5,932 bases of DNA from a virus (IMGVR_UViG_2563366939_000005), one strand, 5' to 3'. Shown: positions 1 to 5,932, counted from the stretch's first letter. Made by a program: numbers and translations. The notes: generated from the letters alone by a model not told the origin.

Positions 1-218
1 GCGTTTAAATCAGCAAAAGACTTTGCGCTTCCGGTCAGAATATCGTGATGCATCAGGCCGGAAACGAGCTGGCTTAATTTCGGGTAATAACCAACCACCG
101 CCAGCCATTCCTGACCGGCGTTTTTACCGCTTTCAGCTCTCTTTTTCTCGTGGAGAATAAACTGAAAGCTGTCACTGGTAACGACATAACGTTCGCCAAT
201 TTCAATACGAATACTCAT
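1..218 (-). CDS. Conserved phage early protein, N-terminal 72 codons only (possibly P2 Orf83-like); continues past window start
   Basis: Hand translation of the reverse strand from ATG at 218..216 gives MSIRIEIGERYVVTSDSFQFILHEKKRAESGKNAGQEWLAVVGYYPKLSQLVSGLMHHDILTGSAKSFADLN with no stop before position 1. The ATG overlaps the stop of the upstream TraR-like gene (ATGA). Absent from the ORF track because it has no stop in the window. It does not resemble the P2 A protein N-terminus as I recall it. Confidence 0.55.
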   Translation of the reverse strand, partial: MSIRIEIGERYVVTSDSFQFILHEKKRAESGKNAGQEWLAVVGYYPKLSQLVSGLMHHDILTGSAKSFADLN

Positions 219-439
219 GCCGTTCTCCGGTAATGTTTGTTTTTTGCTTCAAAGACTGACTGGCAGGAAACACAACGCGTGGCTGACGGATAAGCCGCAC
301 GACGGGCAGCAGGTATTGGCGCGTCACACTCTTCGCAAACCAGCGCAGAAGCACCGCAATGTTTTACCCTTGCCGCGTTAATCTGGCGCTCCAGTAATTC
401 AGCCTGTTGTTCCTGAATAAAATCTACGTTGCCCGGCAT
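215..439 (-). CDS. TraR/DksA-family C4 zinc-finger protein (P2 Orf82-like)
   Basis: 74 aa with two CxxC pairs (CEEC and CVSC) in the spacing typical of the TraR/DksA zinc ribbon. ATG at 439..437 preceded by AAGGA. Its start overlaps the stop of the upstream ORF (TAATG). Confidence 0.8.
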   Translation of the reverse strand: MPGNVDFIQEQQAELLERQINAARVKHCGASALVCEECDAPIPAARRAAYPSATRCVSCQSVFEAKNKHYRRTA

Positions 440-729
440 TACCAGTTCCTTTTGTCGTTCAGTTTCTTAAATTCATCAGCGCAATAGCTGGTGACTTCTG
501 TCGTTAATTTTGTCAGTTCATCCACGGAGGAAATTTGCTTATGAAATACAGCGCGTTTAACAAGTAAATTGACCACATCAGATAGGAGATTTAATTTATC
601 CGCATAAATGGCTATAGTTGATTCCACCATATCCCCAGTGTTTTTATCGCGTTTAATATCAGCTAGCGACAAATCACCATTTTTCATAACTGAAATCTTC
701 AACCAGTTATTAAGCAATATACTTTTCAT
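439..729 (-). CDS. Hypothetical small protein, 96 aa, AT-rich; candidate prophage accessory (moron) gene
   Basis: Uninterrupted ORF starting at ATG 729..727, coupled by ATGA overlap to the ORF upstream and by TAATG to the TraR-like gene downstream. GC about 35% by hand count (103 of 291), clearly below the flanking phage genes. No recognisable motif. Confidence 0.6.
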   Translation of the reverse strand: MKSILLNNWLKISVMKNGDLSLADIKRDKNTGDMVESTIAIYADKLNLLSDVVNLLVKRAVFHKQISSVDELTKLTTEVTSYCADEFKKLNDKRNW

Positions 730-971
730 TCGCTATATGCCCTCTCCGCAGAATCAATCATTTCCCGGCCATTATCGGTAATACAGAAACCTTCTCTTGA
801 TTTGGTCACAAGCCCCCATTTCCCCATTGCTATAAATGCTTTTTCCACACGACTAGGCCAGGAGTGGAAGACATCGCTTGAAGGATGTAGTGGAGTCTTG
901 TCATCTAATTTTTTAAGTAATGAAAGTTGATAATCCGTTAAGCGTTTCCTGAACCATTTTGTATTTGTCAT
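726..971 (-). CDS. Hypothetical small protein, about 81 aa (possibly P2 Orf81-like)
   Basis: The ORF track entry 726..977 begins at a TTG. The ATG two codons in (971..969) has an AGGAAA Shine-Dalgarno about 7 nt upstream, so I place the start there. GC about 41%. Stop overlaps the next start (ATGA). Confidence 0.55.
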   Translation of the reverse strand: MTNTKWFRKRLTDYQLSLLKKLDDKTPLHPSSDVFHSWPSRVEKAFIAMGKWGLVTKSREGFCITDNGREMIDSAERAYSE

Positions 972-985
972 CTCCAACTTTCCTG

Positions 986-1198
986 TTATTTATTGAGTCC
1001 TAGATTATGGAATTTGGCAGACTCCTGACTGAGCAACTCGACTATCTCCACGCGGGATAACTCCGCCTTTGTGATGTGGCGAATCATGGCATCAAGATGA
1101 GACGAAAAGCGCGTTGCTGCGTCGGCCTGTGCTTCGGTTCTGGCCTGTTGCAGCATTAATGCGTATTTACCGCACTGATTTTCAGAAACTGTATGCAT
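986..1198 (-). CDS. Hypothetical small protein, 70 aa (P2 Orf80-like position)
   Basis: The ORF track entry 986..1231 begins at TTG inside a T8 run. The internal ATG at 1198..1196 is preceded by GGAGA with a 5-nt spacer, giving [18 protein letters not shown].... Sits immediately after gene B as in P2. Confidence 0.6.
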
Positions 1199-1212
1199 GA
1201 CTTTCTCCAGGC

Positions 1213-1240
1213 AAAAAAAAGCCCCGCACAATTAAGTGCG
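1213..1240 (-). terminator. Possible weak intrinsic terminator or attenuator between B and the orf80-like gene
   Basis: On the minus strand a 5-bp stem (1240..1236 pairing with 1229..1225, loop AATTAA... read as TTAATT) is followed by GGGC and then eight T (1220..1213). The stem is short and the T-run is not immediately adjacent, so this is weak. Confidence 0.25.
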
Positions 1241-1261
1241 TTAAAAACTCTGGTTAATTAC

Positions 1262-1762
1262 TTAATGCAGATATTGCTCTGGTTTTACCGACGTCAGAAT
1301 TGTCGGTGCATACTCAAACAGGCTGAATAATTCACGTAATGCACGGAATAAAGCATCACGCCAGTAACATGACTCTTCATTAATTCGCCAGTATGGCTGG
1401 TTAAATTCTTTTTCTGTCAGTCGTGCGTGCATAAATAAAGTGCGACGCTGACTGACTGTTAAAAAACTAATATATGCATACTCACTTGCGCCAACCTGAC
1501 GGCGTTTTGAGAATGCCCCGCGCAATTCATCAATTGCACATACCAGTCGTTCACGTTCGACGTCGTTCATTTCTTCAAAACGCATCGTTGCGTGACGCTG
1601 TTTTAACTGCGCATGAAAGCAAACCGTTAGCCGTTCGCGTTCCATCATCTGATTATAATAATCGCATGTCTCCTGCCAGCGAGGGACGGCCAGATGCTTA
1701 CCAATTATCCGGCGCATAGTTGCTGGCTGTTTTTCAACGAGATTGAGCGTCATCACTGTCAT
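1262..1762 (-). CDS. B: P2-type replication protein B
   Basis: 166 aa, the same length as P2 gene B product. The translation (…RLTVCFHAQLKQRHATMRFEEMNDVERERLVCAIDELRGAFSKRRQVGASEYAYISFL…YAPTILTSVKPEQYLH) matches my recollection of P2 B closely. ATG at 1762 overlaps the upstream stop (ATGA). Confidence 0.85.
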   Translation of the reverse strand: MTVMTLNLVEKQPATMRRIIGKHLAVPRWQETCDYYNQMMERERLTVCFHAQLKQRHATMRFEEMNDVERERLVCAIDELRGAFSKRRQVGASEYAYISFLTVSQRRTLFMHARLTEKEFNQPYWRINEESCYWRDALFRALRELFSLFEYAPTILTSVKPEQYLH

Positions 1763-1929
1763 TTCCAGACCCTCCGGCTTTTCAGAAAGGTCAGAGCCTT
1801 TTTTAACGGACTCTGTTTTTTGGTACGGATAATGATTCCCTTACGTCCCTTCCCGTGGGTGATGGTGAAGTCAATCGCCCTGGGGCTTTCGTTACGCAAT
1901 AACTGAGCAATACAACGCGGCTCATTCAT
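1759..1929 (-). CDS. Small basic protein, 56 aa (P2 orf78-like position between cox and B)
   Basis: The ORF track gives 1759..1995 (78 aa), but that start would overlap the cox 3' end by 56 nt. The in-frame ATG at 1929..1927 lies 10 nt after the cox stop and has AAGGTGGA about 5 nt upstream. C-terminus is very Lys/Arg-rich (GKGRKGIIIRTKKQSPLKKALTFLKSRRVWK). Confidence 0.45.
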   Translation of the reverse strand: MNEPRCIAQLLRNESPRAIDFTITHGKGRKGIIIRTKKQSPLKKALTFLKSRRVWK

Positions 1930-1939
1930 CCTTTCCACC

Positions 1940-2311
1940 TTAAGCCGCACGGCCATGTCTTGATTTGCTGTAACTAATGCGATTTTTCCAGTCATGCCAC
2001 TCGGTCGGAGCCTCTTCGACTAGTTGTGCCGCATACTTATCCCACTCACGACGATTTACCCATAATTCAGCTTTCCCTCTTGGTTTTAATGGGTCTGTCA
2101 TATAGAAGGCTGGCAGCTTTCCCGCTTTAGCCATTTCAGCCACCGCGCGTGGTGTCTTACCGATGTAAAGAGCAAACCCCTCTTTCGACAGCAAATCTGA
2201 TGGGCGCTCTGAAATCTGAATGCTTTTGCGTTTGGCTTCGTTTTCGAAACTTGCCTCATCGCTAGTTTGACAAGAAATTTCTACATTTGTCGTCACTTTG
2301 CTATCCTCCAT
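1940..2311 (-). CDS. cox: Cox-family excisionase / early-promoter repressor
   Basis: Residues about 40-110 (GFALYIGKTPRAVAEMAKAGKLPAFYMTDPLKPRGKAELWV…WHDW) align with P2 Cox as I recall it (FAKLIGKSTGAVRRMIDKGKLPVIDMTDP…). First gene of the minus-strand operon, divergent from C. Start is uncertain: ATG at 2311, or GTG at 2296 which has a GGAGGA Shine-Dalgarno at ideal 7-nt spacing. Confidence 0.8.
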   Translation of the reverse strand: MEDSKVTTNVEISCQTSDEASFENEAKRKSIQISERPSDLLSKEGFALYIGKTPRAVAEMAKAGKLPAFYMTDPLKPRGKAELWVNRREWDKYAAQLVEEAPTEWHDWKNRISYSKSRHGRAA

Positions 2312-2411
2312 AAGATTTGTAATTCACCAACTGGAGCCATCTAGAGCCTTTTTGAGTGCATCACAAATTGCCAAGTGGCCATATAATTGGAGATTAGCAA
2401 AATTATGTCAA
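2312..2411. promoter_or_regulatory. Divergent lysis-lysogeny switch region between cox and C (candidate promoters and operator repeats)
   Basis: About 93 bp between the divergent cox and C starts. Minus strand has a consensus -35 TTGACA (2411..2406, overlapping the C start codon), a 17-nt spacer and a -10-like AATTAT (2388..2383). A 9-bp direct repeat TNGAGCCNT occurs at 2332..2340 and 2342..2350, one helical turn apart. Plus strand has TATAAT at 2382..2387 without a well-spaced -35. Confidence 0.4.
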
Positions 2412-2704
2412 GTGAACAAAGCGAGAAATTAAAGCTCATCCGTGAATCCGAACGCCTTAAAACTAAGGAACTTGCTGAATTAATTGGAATTAATTACTAC
2501 ACATATCATGGATATGAATCAGGGAAATCAAAAATGCCTATGGAAGCAGGTATGAAGCTGTTTAAGCATCCACGCTTTCGCAAGTATCGTGACTGGTTCA
2601 TGTTTGATGAAATAGATCCCGAAGCTGGACAAATAGCCCCGGCTCTCGCACACATTGGGCAAGACTCAACAACCTTGCACCACTCAGACCAAAAGACTGG
2701 CTGA
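2405..2704 (+). CDS. C: P2 C-type immunity repressor
   Basis: The ORF track entry starts at TTG 2387; the ATG at 2405 gives a 99-aa product, the size of P2 C. The C-terminal third (…DEIDPEAGQIAPALAHIGQDSTTLHHSDQKTG) matches the conserved P2 C region as I recall it. Immediately upstream of int on the same strand, as in P2. Confidence 0.85.
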   Translation: MSSEQSEKLKLIRESERLKTKELAELIGINYYTYHGYESGKSKMPMEAGMKLFKHPRFRKYRDWFMFDEIDPEAGQIAPALAHIGQDSTTLHHSDQKTG

Positions 2705-2797
2705 CGATTTATTCAGCATATGTGTGCAGTAAATGTACGAAAGAAAATTGCATTAATTTTCAAGTAGTAGAAGTAAACAGCGTCATCGGAGGGCTTT

Positions 2798-3793
2798 ATG
2801 TCTATTAAAAAGCTCGATGATGGTCGTTATGAAGTGGACGTCAGACCGCAGGGTACAGATGGAAAACGTATCAGGCGGAAATTTAAAACTAAGGGTGAAG
2901 CTCAAGCATTCGAACGTCATGTACTGGTTAACTACCACAACAAAGAGTGGTTGGAGAAGCCAGCCGACCGCCGAACTCTTACAGAGTTGTTAGGCAGATG
3001 GTGGATATATCACGGAAAATCACATGAGCGTGGAGATATTGAACGGGGGCGTTTGACGACAATAATCGCCAAATTTGCAGAAATGGGAGTATCCAGAGCT
3101 GACCAGCTAACAAAGAAAACGATAACTGATTATCGCGTTGTAATGATGAACGATGGTCTAAAACCAGCCAGCGTAAATCGGCATCTGGCAATAATGAGCG
3201 GGATGTTCACCAAATTAATTGACGCCGGTGAATACCACTCTCACAACCCGTTCCGTGAGGTTAAGCGGTTACGTGAAGCTGTTACGGAAATGGCTTTTTT
3301 GTCCAGTGAAGAGATTACGCGGCTGTTATCCATGCTTGATGGTGATGAATTAAATGCGACTCTGGTCTGCCTTTCTACTGGTGGACGCTGGAGTGAAGTG
3401 TCTAATTTAAAAGCTGAACACATCATTAACCAGATGGTTACGTTTATGAAAACTAAAAACGGAAAGCGCAGGACAATTCCCGTTTCGCCGGACTTGATTA
3501 AACGGATCAAGACCAAAAATTCAGGCAGGCTTTTTAATGCCAGTTACTACAAAGTGCGCAACGCTCTCAGGGAAGTAAAACCCGATTTACCTGACGGACA
3601 GGCAGTGCATGTTTTGAGGCATACATTTGCCACACATTTTATAATGAATGGAGGTAACATAATCACATTGCAGCGCATCCTGGGTCATTCTAACATTCAG
3701 CAAACTATGACCTACGCACACTTTGCACCGGATTTCTTACAAGATGCTGTGACTCTTAACCCGGTGTCAGGAATGTCCATAATGCGTCCATAA
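2798..3793 (+). CDS. int: Tyrosine recombinase, P2-type phage integrase
   Basis: 331 aa with ATG preceded by GGAGGG. Catalytic signature present: box I Arg (LSTGGRWSEV), HxxR (HVLRHTFATHF) and the nucleophile Tyr (LGHSNIQQTMTYAHF). N-terminus MSIKKLDDGRYEVDVRP resembles P2 Int (MAIKKLDDGRYEVDIRP as recalled). Confidence 0.95.
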   Translation: MSIKKLDDGRYEVDVRPQGTDGKRIRRKFKTKGEAQAFERHVLVNYHNKEWLEKPADRRTLTELLGRWWIYHGKSHERGDIERGRLTTIIAKFAEMGVSRADQLTKKTITDYRVVMMNDGLKPASVNRHLAIMSGMFTKLIDAGEYHSHNPFREVKRLREAVTEMAFLSSEEITRLLSMLDGDELNATLVCLSTGGRWSEVSNLKAEHIINQMVTFMKTKNGKRRTIPVSPDLIKRIKTKNSGRLFNASYYKVRNALREVKPDLPDGQAVHVLRHTFATHFIMNGGNIITLQRILGHSNIQQTMTYAHFAPDFLQDAVTLNPVSGMSIMRP

Positions 3794-3824
3794 ACCAGAG
3801 TTAACTAGAGCCAATTGAAGCGAT
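3794..3824. other. Approximate prophage-chromosome junction (att core somewhere between the int stop and the 5' region of pflA)
   Basis: The last phage gene ends at 3793 and the host pflA frame opens at 3825. The core cannot be delimited without the other prophage end. The AT-rich stretch 3825..3860 followed by GC-richer sequence suggests the true junction may lie inside the annotated 5' end of the pflA ORF. Confidence 0.3.
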
Positions 3825-4622
3825 ATGAGTAATTTAACTAATTGTAATACAACAGAAAATACCGCTGCGGCGGGAGCTACCAAGTCAGTTATTGGTCGCA
3901 TTCACTCCTTTGAATCCTGTGGAACCGTAGACGGCCCGGGTATTCGCTTTATCACCTTTTTCCAGGGCTGCCTGATGCGCTGCCTGTATTGTCATAACCG
4001 CGACACCTGGGATACGCATGGCGGTAAAGAAGTTACCGTTGAAGATTTAATGAAGGAAGTGGTGACCTATCGCCACTTTATGAACGCTTCCGGCGGCGGC
4101 GTTACCGCATCCGGCGGTGAAGCAATCCTACAAGCCGAGTTCGTTCGCGACTGGTTCCGCGCCTGCAAAAAAGAAGGCATTCATACCTGTCTGGACACTA
4201 ACGGTTTTGTTCGTCGTTACGATCCAGTAATTGATGAACTTCTGGAAGTGACCGACCTGGTAATGCTCGATCTCAAACAGATGAACGACGAAATCCACCA
4301 GAATCTGGTAGGCGTTTCCAACCATCGTACACTCGAGTTTGCTAAATATCTGGCGAACAAAAATGTGAAAGTCTGGATACGTTATGTCGTAGTACCTGGC
4401 TGGTCTGACGATGACGATTCAGCTCATCGCCTCGGTGAATTTACTCGCGATATGGGTAACGTCGAAAAAATCGAGCTCCTCCCCTACCATGAGTTAGGCA
4501 AACATAAGTGGGTGGCGATGGGCGAAGAGTACAAACTCGACGGTGTGAAACCACCGAAAAAAGAAACCATGGAGCGAGTGAAAGGGATTCTTGAGCAATA
4601 TGGTCATAAAGTGATGTTCTAA
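3825..4622 (+). CDS. pflA: Pyruvate formate-lyase activating enzyme (radical SAM glycyl-radical activase)
   Basis: Radical-SAM CxxxCxxC motif (CLMRCLYC) and a glycine-rich SAM-binding stretch. From codon 21 onward the translation matches E. coli PflA as I recall it ([40 protein letters not shown]… to …[11 protein letters not shown]). The 5' end given is the only in-frame ATG; see the finding on the start codon. Confidence 0.95.
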
Positions 4623-4672: not shown

Positions 4673-4715
4673 AAAAAGTAAATCAGCGTTGAGAACATGC
4701 TCGACGCTGATTTAC
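4673..4715 (-). terminator. Intrinsic terminator in the convergent pflA/OMP intergenic region (mainly serves the minus-strand gene; may also stop pflA)
   Basis: Perfect 11-bp inverted repeat GTAAATCAGCG (4678..4688) with CGCTGATTTAC (4705..4715), extendable to about 16 bp with one G-U pair, loop AACATG. On the minus strand it is followed directly by five T (4677..4673). On the plus strand the T-tract is weaker and displaced. Confidence 0.55.
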
Positions 4716-4756
4716 TGGATATAATTTCCGAGTTTTAACCTTCTGATTCTACCTCG

Positions 4757-5932
4757 TTACCAGTCGGCGTAAGGTATCAGCGGCTGCGGCGGTAAATCCA
4801 TGTCGCCCTGCCATCCGGCGGCGGAATACCGCACGTAGAGCAGGAAATGGCTGGGTGCGTAATCTTTCGCCTGCTGGATATCAATTGCCGTGCCGACAAA
4901 CCAGTTGGACGTGACGCGACGCTCAAGTAACGCCCGCGCCGTGTAGCCAAAGCCCTGACTGCTGCCGCCGGCGTTGGTCTGGCTGGCGGCATCCTCTTTC
5001 CAGTCCGTCGGGATCAGGTTCATCAGCGGATAACGCGGCATGGTTTTGGTGCGTGAATGCGACCACGAGCCAGACGCGCCCAGCTCCCACGACCAGTTTT
5101 CCGTCCGCTCCCGCCACATCACCGGTATGGCAAACGACAGGTATTCCTGCGGGCTGTAGTAACCGCCCTGACCGAGTGAGTAGCCACTCAGGTCTTTGTC
5201 GTAATGCCAGATCATGTTGTTCAGGCCGATTGTGACGCGGCGATTGTTCTGGTTGATGACCTTATAGTAATAGCCCGTCATCCAGCGCACGCGCCAGTTA
5301 TCTTCGACATTTTTACCGGTTAACTGGTCGCCGCTAAGCGATGCCCAGACGCCGTTCGCTTCACCTTTATCGTAGCTCAGACTTAGCCCCACGCCATCGG
5401 CACGCACACCGCCCCATTTTTTCCCGGTATTACCCGGGGAGTCTTTCTGTCCGCCGAAGGCCAGCAAGGAACTGGAGATGGGGCGACGATGGGCGTTAAC
5501 GGTGTAACCAAGCGGCCCGATATCGTCGCTGTAACTGATGCCGCCGACCACATCCACCACGTTGAAGCCCATCGGCGTGGTGCCGATATCCCAGCTCCAG
5601 ACGTCATTTCGCCAGCCGACCGCCACGCTGGCGCCGGAATCTGACTGGCTGCGGTTGCCGCTACAGTCCTGCAACGTACAGGTGCCCCAGTTGTTATCCC
5701 ATTTACCCTCAGCGTCGGCGGAAAAACTGCCGACGTTCATATTGACGAAATCACTGCGAAAGAACATCCGTCCGTCAGAATACGGTGCATCCACCTGCAA
5801 CATGGTGGTGTGCGCTTTCAGGTCGGAGTAACCACCGGTGCCGCTCGAGCCCCAGTAGTCGTGCTCAAGGGTGACGTTAAGATCCTGCTGGCGATAGAGA
5901 TCTGCCGCATCGCTGCGCACGCCGCGCTTCAG
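4757..5932 (-). CDS. Outer-membrane beta-barrel protein, C-terminal portion (resembles the BcsC-type polysaccharide exporter barrel); 5' end beyond window
   Basis: The frame is open from 5932 to the TAA at 4757..4759; the ORF track M at 5920 is a GTG inside a longer frame. Gly/Ser/aromatic-rich, barrel-like sequence ending in an aromatic residue (…PLIPYADW), typical of an OMP beta-signal. GC about 60-65% in the sampled 4757..4816. The BcsC assignment is from memory and tentative. Confidence 0.75.
   Translation of the reverse strand: MKRGVRSDAADLYRQQDLNVTLEHDYWGSSGTGGYSDLKAHTTMLQVDAPYSDGRMFFRSDFVNMNVGSFSADAEGKWDNNWGTCTLQDCSGNRSQSDSGASVAVGWRNDVWSWDIGTTPMGFNVVDVVGGISYSDDIGPLGYTVNAHRRPISSSLLAFGGQKDSPGNTGKKWGGVRADGVGLSLSYDKGEANGVWASLSGDQLTGKNVEDNWRVRWMTGYYYKVINQNNRRVTIGLNNMIWHYDKDLSGYSLGQGGYYSPQEYLSFAIPVMWRERTENWSWELGASGSWSHSRTKTMPRYPLMNLIPTDWKEDAASQTNAGGSSQGFGYTARALLERRVTSNWFVGTAIDIQQAKDYAPSHFLLYVRYSAAGWQGDMDLPPQPLIPYADW

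Follow-up and report, generated by a model that had tools for sequence, protein, structure and literature searches.

The 5,932-nt stretch of viral DNA analysed here on one strand (IMGVR_UViG_2563366939_000005; hereafter the window, meaning the whole stretch) joins phage DNA to pflA, the gene of the pyruvate formate lyase 1-activating protein. We consider it about 85% probable that window 1-3896 belongs to a P2-family (Peduovirus) prophage, of which it forms the int-proximal end (attR), and that the integrase is of the PhiD145/ECA29 specificity class, which targets the very start of pflA. There is nothing unusual in a P2-like prophage beside pflA as such, since the site has been published and roughly one in thirteen complete E. 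coli genomes has it occupied. Less ordinary is that the phage DNA swaps the pflA start codon for an in-frame start of its own. The phage part stops inside the early operon, and attR is the only attachment site visible in the window.

The prophage boundary inside the pflA reading frame

The stop codon of int (TAA, 3791-3793) and the ATG of the open reading frame (ORF) that encodes PflA (3825) are separated by a spacer of 31 nt (3794-3824). This is the distance given in the original prediction, made from the sequence alone, which let the prophage end at 3824, just upstream of pflA. The alignments move that end about 60 nt further on, into the ORF. Similarity to K-12 begins only at ~3881-3884 (K-12, ...GAAACACCGCAATGTCAGTTATTGG...; window, ...GGGAGCTACCAAGTCAGTTATTGG...). 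With a 201-bp junction query, prophage-free E. coli genomes (5021) match the window from 3881 on only. Free-phage genomes, in genome comparisons, match it up to 3896-3902. Because the boundary had been misplaced by these ~60 nt, the phage-host fusion within the ORF was missed earlier.

We aligned four sequences across the site: the window (attR), phage P24A7b (attP), the far prophage end in E. coli AF3 (attL), and K-12 (attB). They share a 13-bp core, GTCAGTTATTGGT, which starts at the G of the native pflA ATG, stops at the first base of codon 6, and corresponds to NC_000913.3 951066-951078 in K-12. The attB site reads ..ACCGCAAT, core, CGCATTCACTCC, and the attP site ..GCTACCAA, core, GACATTTTTTGATATC; taken across the site, K-12 and the prophage-free E. 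coli 06-00048 have ...CACCGCAATGTCAGTTATTGGTCGCATTC, and P24A7b has ...GCTACCAAGTCAGTTATTGGTGACATTTTTTGA. The attL of AF3 joins host sequence on the left to phage sequence on the right, and the attR of the window joins phage on the left to host on the right. Strand exchange takes place inside the 13-bp core (3884-3896): everything left of it is phage, and everything right of it is host pflA. The short direct repeat that had been expected at both prophage ends is this core, found in attL and attR of AF3.

The phage arm to the left of the core (3794-3883) has no similarity to the native pflB-pflA intergenic region and is not a copy of the displaced host end; within it lie an IHF-like motif (TAACTAATTGTAAT) and the point at which the chimeric ORF begins. 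The two direct GTCCATAA repeats over the 3' end of int fit the complement of the P2-type Int arm-site consensus, tgTGGaCa (PMC3448106), and are putative binding sites. Arms of the E. coli type also contain ACCAA...TTGGT, a 5-bp inverted repeat around the 8-nt GTCAGTTA. This may be a pair of Int core-binding half-sites, and such a pair is a candidate reason why the T of the native ATG is A at the junction. One human gut metagenome contig (OQKP01006191) has the same arm and leader joined, after AAGTCAGT, to non-pflA sequence (AATAGTGGCATTCGCCAGTTTCAGC...), which may represent a secondary core-like integration site or an assembly artefact, the contig being of low coverage. Scans for tRNA and transfer-messenger RNA (tmRNA) genes and for Rfam families found none anywhere in the window. 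No tRNA or small RNA target was found at the junction, and the tRNA/tmRNA-targeting class (186/Fels-2 type) was ruled out, since there is no tRNA or tmRNA at the att core or elsewhere in the window.

The layout of related genomes agrees with this boundary. In the lysogen E. coli AF3 the order is pflB, 13-bp core, ogr ... int, 13-bp core, pflA, with 31,099 bp between the two cores and pflB directly beyond attL. The closest prophage-free relative, E. coli 06-00048, has focA-pflB-pflA (246 aa)-bcsC and an attB like that of K-12; its pflA differs from that of the window at three of 741 nt, one of which is the T-to-A change in the start codon. These two genomes bear out the earlier suggestion that pflB, which the K-12 genome annotation places directly upstream of pflA, has been displaced beyond the prophage, and 06-00048 supplies the unoccupied site that was to be reconstructed from prophage-free relatives. 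The int-pflA junction is also present in E. albertii NBRC 107761 (92.5% identity), with divergence after pflA. Nine loci with a 265-aa chimeric pflA were examined (eight with an identical protein, together with AF3), and in each of them gene A and the portal and terminase genes lie no more than 10 kb away. By the same layout, the order pflB, ...GCAATGTCAGTTATTGGTGACATTTTTTGA, a hairpin, and ogr would be expected ~31 kb to the left on the full contig.

The attachment site at the start of pflA has already been described, and it is common. The viable P2-like phages PhiD145 and PhiD160 integrate at MG1655 coordinate 950293, and prophage ECA29 of Pectobacterium atrosepticum SCRI1043 has the site identity "PhiD145" in the same listing (Nilsson et al. 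2011, PMC3448106, Table 1). The PhiD145 record AJ298559 comprises late genes only, and our PhiD145-class assignment is by site position and by the link to ECA29. With an offset of +777, which we take to separate the old MG1655 numbering (U00096.2) from the current one (U00096.3), coordinate 950293 becomes 951070 on NC_000913.3: the 11th nucleotide of pflA (950340-951080, minus strand), within the 13-bp core. In a protein search, the integrase named for P. atrosepticum SCRI1043 is 74% identical to that of the window, and contigs encoding the SCRI1043-type integrase have a 265-aa radical-SAM gene 40 nt downstream, a chimeric pflA with the same fusion. Integrase homologues at 74-99% identity adjoin pflA in eight genera besides E. 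coli. The junction itself is found in 405-408 of 5426 complete E. coli genomes (about 7.5%), and the exact 265-aa chimeric protein in 10,645 assembly-collection blocks and on >1000 contigs.

Some further records touch on the range of this site. An IMG/VR contig has an integrase 70% identical to that of the window, with another arm, next to a pyrE-like gene (MKAYQRQFIEFAL...); the integrase clade therefore has at least one other attachment site at ~70% identity. The PhiECO1 site (E. coli HS 916812-948276) was considered as a pflA site and rejected, as it holds a 186-type prophage between rcdA and ybjL. Also rejected as evidence of transduction were "phage" records carrying pflA (ON470599 and others), which contain host DNA in a partial phage record. 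In ON470599.1 (Escherichia phage vB_EcoM-569R5, partial genome), at least the first 9 kb are host chromosome, ycaO-focA-pflB-pflA-ycaD-ycaC-dmsCBA; pflA matches in a phage collection do not, because of such host DNA, mean phage-borne pflA.

Two other accounts of the junction were considered. The original prediction allowed that pflA may be an uncommon or previously undescribed P2-like site, with the prophage lying just upstream of an intact gene. It is true that pflA is not among the classical P2 loc sites and that the integrase differs from that of P2, which upholds the accompanying idea of a different P2-like phage with its own att specificity. Given that PhiD145, PhiD160, and ECA29 are tabulated at the site, that the junction recurs among E. 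coli genomes at the frequency above, and that the boundary is within the ORF and not upstream of it, we find an undescribed site scarcely credible. Nor does it seem at all probable that the window shows a left-over int-C-cox fragment standing alone, or an int that is native and fixed beside pflA. The window does stop in the early operon, with structural genes out of view; however, every gene of its early region is intact, with ~97% identity to viable phages, and portal and terminase genes stand near the chimeric pflA in each of the nine loci. About 92% of complete E. coli genomes have no int at pflA, so that int is not a fixed neighbour, and the nine loci argue that it is not typically a remnant either. 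What tells against our assignment is that the window by itself shows one end only, the presumed completeness of this prophage being read from relatives, and that the placement of the PhiD145 coordinate depends on the assumed offset.

The chimeric pflA gene, its leader, and its proposed transcription

The 265-aa ORF at 3825-4622 is a phage-host fusion, in which the first 59 nt (3825-3883) are phage DNA and the native pflA ATG reads AAG (3882-3884). Residues 21-265 of the chimeric PflA equal native residues 2-246, the N-terminus being 19 residues longer; residues 21-265 are also identical to the crystallised E. coli enzyme, whose chain begins at Ser2 (3c8f/3cb8). Integration carries the native upstream region, the Shine-Dalgarno sequence, and the ATG ~31 kb away to attL, where the displaced pflA start heads an 8-codon stub (MSVIGDIF, then a stop). 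The next in-frame ATG of pflA is native Met32, inside the CX3CX2C cluster motif. As this lies past the first cysteine of the motif, active PflA in a lysogen requires the phage ATG. The free phage, too, has an ORF of 27 aa that shares the pflA frame. An AlphaFold model of the chimeric PflA, run on the single sequence without an alignment, has a mean predicted local distance difference test score of 44.7 and is uninformative about the leader.

NCBI and UniRef call the 265-aa chimera plain pflA, as do annotation pipelines. Thousands of 265-aa "pyruvate formate lyase 1-activating protein" entries are thus phage-host chimeras, with their first 19-20 residues phage-encoded. A full-text literature search outside the primary PhiD145/ECA29 papers found no published mention of a phage-supplied pflA start; apart from a 2026 review (PMC13492144), it gave unrelated papers.

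Diverged junctions were gathered from species-representative genomes (by integrase query), from a metagenome pattern scan, and from contigs encoding integrase homologues. An IMG/VR integrase scan gave 80 loci, in which most contigs end 3 nt past the int stop and few junctions were recovered. We distinguish eight arm types, which span eight or more genera. One is that of E. coli/E. albertii and two occur in Scandinavium/Pseudescherichia; the others come from Rahnella, one metagenome contig, Pectobacterium, Dickeya, and Serratia. Their leaders are 52-80% identical in pairwise comparison, and in all eight an ATG with 17-19 codons is open in the pflA frame. The host ATG has become AAG in five of the eight and is kept in Rahnella and Serratia; all five arm types without the native ATG keep the upstream in-frame ATG. 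There are 41 stop triplets in the eight leaders, 20 and 21 in the two other frames and none in the pflA frame, with a probability of an open frame under shuffling of 0.15-0.46 per arm type. Of 32 polymorphisms within arm types, 17 affect the third position of a codon (p about 0.02-0.04). From these patterns, the pflA fusion frame looks maintained across arm types.

In most arm types a G-rich Shine-Dalgarno-like run (GGGAG, GGGGC, GAGG, GGGGGA; window 3869-3884 and the corresponding places in other arms) stands 5-8 nt before the AAG/ATG codon; the Pectobacterium arm is without it. The Rahnella and Serratia arms still supply both Shine-Dalgarno sequence and ATG directly, and the ancestral arm may have done so as well.

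In P2, C and int are co-transcribed from the Pc promoter. When the window was scanned for terminators, none appeared on the + strand from C through int to pflA. A GC-rich hairpin (AAAGCCCCTCAACTGAGGGGCTTT) is located just right of the core in the free phage; because it sits on the other arm, it is at attL after integration and leaves no + strand terminator between int and pflA. With the terminator-like hairpin left at attL, the Pc-C-int lysogenic transcript should enter the chimeric pflA, and such read-through would be the main source of pflA mRNA. The gene for the N-extended PflA would then come third, after C and int, in a Pc-C-int-pflA' transcript, and phage immunity would control it in place of its own promoter. 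Some transcription may be added by a weak promoter-like element at 3756-3783 (TTAACC-16-CATAAT), which lies over both GTCCATAA repeats inside the 3' end of int and whose CATAAT is replaced by a perfect TATAAT in the arms from Rahnella, Pectobacterium, Dickeya, and Serratia. The chimeric gene would in this way be the functional pflA of lysogens, its N-extended product made from a phage-driven transcript, and excision would restore native pflA.

We lean somewhat toward the interpretation that, in at least eight diverged phage lineages from eight or more enterobacterial genera, the attP left arm evolved as a portable replacement 5' end for pflA, providing an in-frame ATG, a leader of 17-19 codons, and probably transcription from the lysogenic operon, so that lysogeny would rewire the activase rather than knock it out. 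Several considerations pull the other way. The Shine-Dalgarno sequence before ATG 3825 is weak (GAAG). Promoter-like matches are at chance level (4 found, 4.6 expected in shuffled sequence) and are for that reason positional candidates only. The eight arm types share ancestry, so that the stop-codon statistics overstate their independence, and there are no indels among the arms, which alone preserves frame. The invariant Cys codon and part of the leader DNA conservation are due to the IHF-like YAANNNNTTGTWT motif, and attP architecture (this motif and spacing constraints) partly accounts for the conservation of the leader. Finally, a 2026 review gives ECA29 as integrated in and disrupting pflA (PMC13492144), and we infer the expression and activity of the chimeric PflA from sequence.

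Many of these observations would also fit simple inactivation: pflA loses its promoter, Shine-Dalgarno sequence, and ATG, the open leader is a by-product of attP or of the 27-aa phage ORF, and lysogens are PflA-deficient until excision. The AAG at attR in five of eight arm types fits a knock-out, and the weak Shine-Dalgarno sequence, the chance-level promoter matches, and the published account of ECA29 agree with it; the 27-aa ORF of the free phage could be the conserved item, and the IHF-like motif accounts for much of the DNA conservation. A knock-out leaves less room for the absence of all 41 stop triplets from the pflA frame in arms at 52-80% identity, for the upstream ATG retained in every arm type that has lost the native one, and for within-type variation that leans to third codon positions; no terminator, moreover, stops read-through from int. 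The chimeric ORF is intact, with a host part equal to native PflA, on its >1000 contigs and in ~7.5% of complete E. coli genomes, although recent integrations could also give that result. We regard inactivation as rather unlikely and return to the replacement 5' end.

If the arm does serve as a substitute start, a common prophage brings the activase of the central anaerobic enzyme PFL, and also of TdcE and GrcA, under the transcriptional control of the phage. This would hold for a substantial share of the strains of E. coli, Pectobacterium, Dickeya, Serratia, and Rahnella, whose fermentation phenotypes could change. The effects on virulence and motility that have been reported for ECA29 might be connected with it, and the published description of ECA29 as "disrupting pflA" would need correcting. 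The system would then be a clean natural case of a phage-carried substitute gene start.

Gene content of the phage and host parts

The ORF list and the Pfam and PHROG scans identify window 1-3883 as a P2-type early/lysogeny module (Table 1). The P2 gene order is followed throughout: int and C on the + strand, and cox, the phrog_273 ORF, B, DUF2732, DUF5405, the TraR zinc finger, and a second DUF5405 gene all on the - strand, with the position of gene A past the left end of the window. Over window 1-3896, nucleotide identity to sequenced Peduovirus genomes is 93.9-97% (83-90% of window 1-3900 covered), those matched at high identity being P24A7b, P24E6b, pro483, 11W, and others. Gene order and identity both agree with the P2-family affiliation proposed from the sequence.

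Table 1. Features of the window, with coordinates counted from its first nucleotide
Feature	Position	Strand	Evidence
P2 early gene, 5' part (DUF5405/phrog_154 "replication initiation protein" family), cut by window edge	3..218	-	PHROG E=1e-34
TraR/DksA-type zinc-finger protein, 74 aa, P2 early region	215..439	-	Pfam zf-dskA_traR E=2.9e-11
DUF5405 protein, 96 aa	439..729	-	Pfam DUF5405 E=4.3e-26
83-aa accessory ORF, phrog_11056 (function unknown)	726..977	-	PHROG E=3.7e-58
DUF2732 protein, ORF 81 aa	986..1231	-	Pfam DUF2732 E=6.1e-9
Replication protein B, 166 aa	1262..1762	-	phrog_235 E=9.6e-104; homologous loci annotated repB/PF26815 Phage_RepB
Small early ORF, phrog_273	1759..1995	-	PHROG match to residues 23-78
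cox (excisionase, Pc repressor)	1940..2311	-	Pfam Phage_Cox E=5.4e-30; phrog_1831, phrog_272
Face-to-face switch promoters, predicted	2360..2411	both	Consensus scan, 10/12 matches each
C immunity repressor, 99 aa	2405..2704	+	phrog_147 E=2.5e-40; "C protein" in phage records
P2-type tyrosine integrase, 331 aa, pflA-integrating class	2798..3793	+	Pfam Int_N and Phage_integrase
Two direct GTCCATAA repeats, overlapping int 3' end	3775-3782 and 3786-3793	+	Read from sequence
Phage left arm of attP, now left part of attR	3794..3883	+	2 differences from free-phage attP of P24A7b; unlike K-12 upstream of pflA
Phage-derived 5' end of 265-aa ORF: ATG, 18 codons, and AA of AAG codon	3825..3883	+	K-12 and attP alignment
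13-bp att core GTCAGTTATTGGT	3884..3896	+	Identical in attB (K-12, 06-00048), attP (P24A7b), attL and attR (AF3)
Host pflA, from within codon 6 to stop	3897..4622	+	Protein equals K-12 PflA from residue 2 on
17-bp perfect hairpin between convergent pflA and bcsC, host DNA	4677..4716	.	RNAfold
bcsC 3' part, second cellulose-synthase cluster in place of ycaK-ycaN	4757..5932	-	Annotated bcsC in AF3, 06-00048

Within the early operon, the lysogen counterpart of the gene cut by the left edge is a 91-aa DUF5405 gene that precedes gene A. The segment 597-997, which holds the 83-aa ORF between the DUF2732 and DUF5405 genes, is missing in the AF3 prophage (a blastn gap) and in most of the matching phages; an 81-aa ORF similar to it is found in a relative (locus L016), and the 83-aa ORF may be a small accessory gene of the early operon. 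The start of the DUF2732 gene is probably internal, since relatives are annotated at 70-74 aa, and the phrog_273 ORF is probably used as a 56-aa form from an internal ATG, as in the 56-aa gene of relatives. The predicted switch promoters are a Pc-like one on the + strand (ATCACA-16-TATAAT, 2360-2387) and a Pe-like one on the - strand (TTGACA-17-AATTAT, 2411-2383). Their hexamers recur at the equivalent place in phage P24A7b; both are putative promoters, assigned as Pc and Pe by position and from knowledge of P2.

Prophages with essentially the same integrase and attR carry differing C/cox immunity regions. The E. albertii NBRC 107761 prophage has no match over window 1918-2389, and C is 99 aa in some lysogen loci (L013-L020) and 103 aa in others. 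A single attachment specificity thus goes with more than one type of immunity.

To the right of the core, window 3882-4622 differs from K-12 pflA at 55 nt, 53 of them at third codon positions, with no protein change from residue 2. The density of these differences climbs from 5' to 3' (2, 8, and 12.4 per 100 nt), which suggests that a recombined tract came in from downstream, along with the bcs island. The hairpin beyond pflA, as predicted by RNAfold, is probably a bidirectional terminator. The second cellulose-synthase cluster of AF3 comprises bcsA, bcsB, and bcsC with GGDEF and EAL genes. A layout of pflA followed by bcsC occurs in 10 of 5426 complete E. coli genomes; 06-00048, GF43, and N3, which have it, are the closest relatives (96.5-97% identical to the window).

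Comparison with known systems

PhiD145 and PhiD160 (Karlsson et al. 2006; Mandali et al. 2010; tabulated by Nilsson et al. 2011) share the P2-type int-C-cox module with the window, and their site (offset-converted) falls inside the same 13-bp core at the pflA start. The study of Mandali et al. reportedly arrived at a 22-nt minimal attB with 18 identities to attP. The alignment of attB and attP obtained here, with 3+13+6 nt and 1+13+4 identities, fits those figures.

Prophage ECA29 (Evans et al. 2010, cited in PMC13492144 and PMC3448106) is likewise P2-like, with the 74% identical integrase noted above, and its int-pflA junction consists of an ATG, 19 codons, and AAG fused to pflA codon 2. It differs in its host genus and in a diverged leader (MNNSNTCFSTEKPDIAEAVK). 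The literature has pflA disrupted there, whereas the sequence contains an intact 265-aa chimeric ORF. Phages P24A7b, pro483, 11W, and vB_YpM_46 have ~97% nucleotide identity over 1-3896, including int and the attP left arm with its leader ORF. In these free or excised records, however, what comes after the core is the right arm of the phage (GACATTTTTTGA..., hairpin, ogr) and not pflA, and most of them are without the segment 597-997 that includes the 83-aa ORF.

The proposed takeover of pflA resembles what happens at the HK022 prophage end next to torS, where replacement of the native promoter by phage-driven transcription was shown experimentally (PMC13492144). In both, a prophage end takes over, or would take over, the promoter of an adjacent anaerobic-metabolism gene; in HK022 this concerns the promoter only, whereas at pflA the start codon and N-terminus are replaced too, and expression is what we infer. 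Gene-end integrators offer a second parallel, since they bring a replacement copy of the part of the gene that they displace, as at icd for e14 and phage 21. With these phages, and with 186 and HP1 at tRNA genes, the target stays intact because the phage arm supplies the displaced end, as it does here. In those systems the end supplied is the 3' end, by a near-identical copy; at pflA it is the 5' end, by an unrelated sequence that adds 19 residues and leaves the gene cut off from its own promoter.

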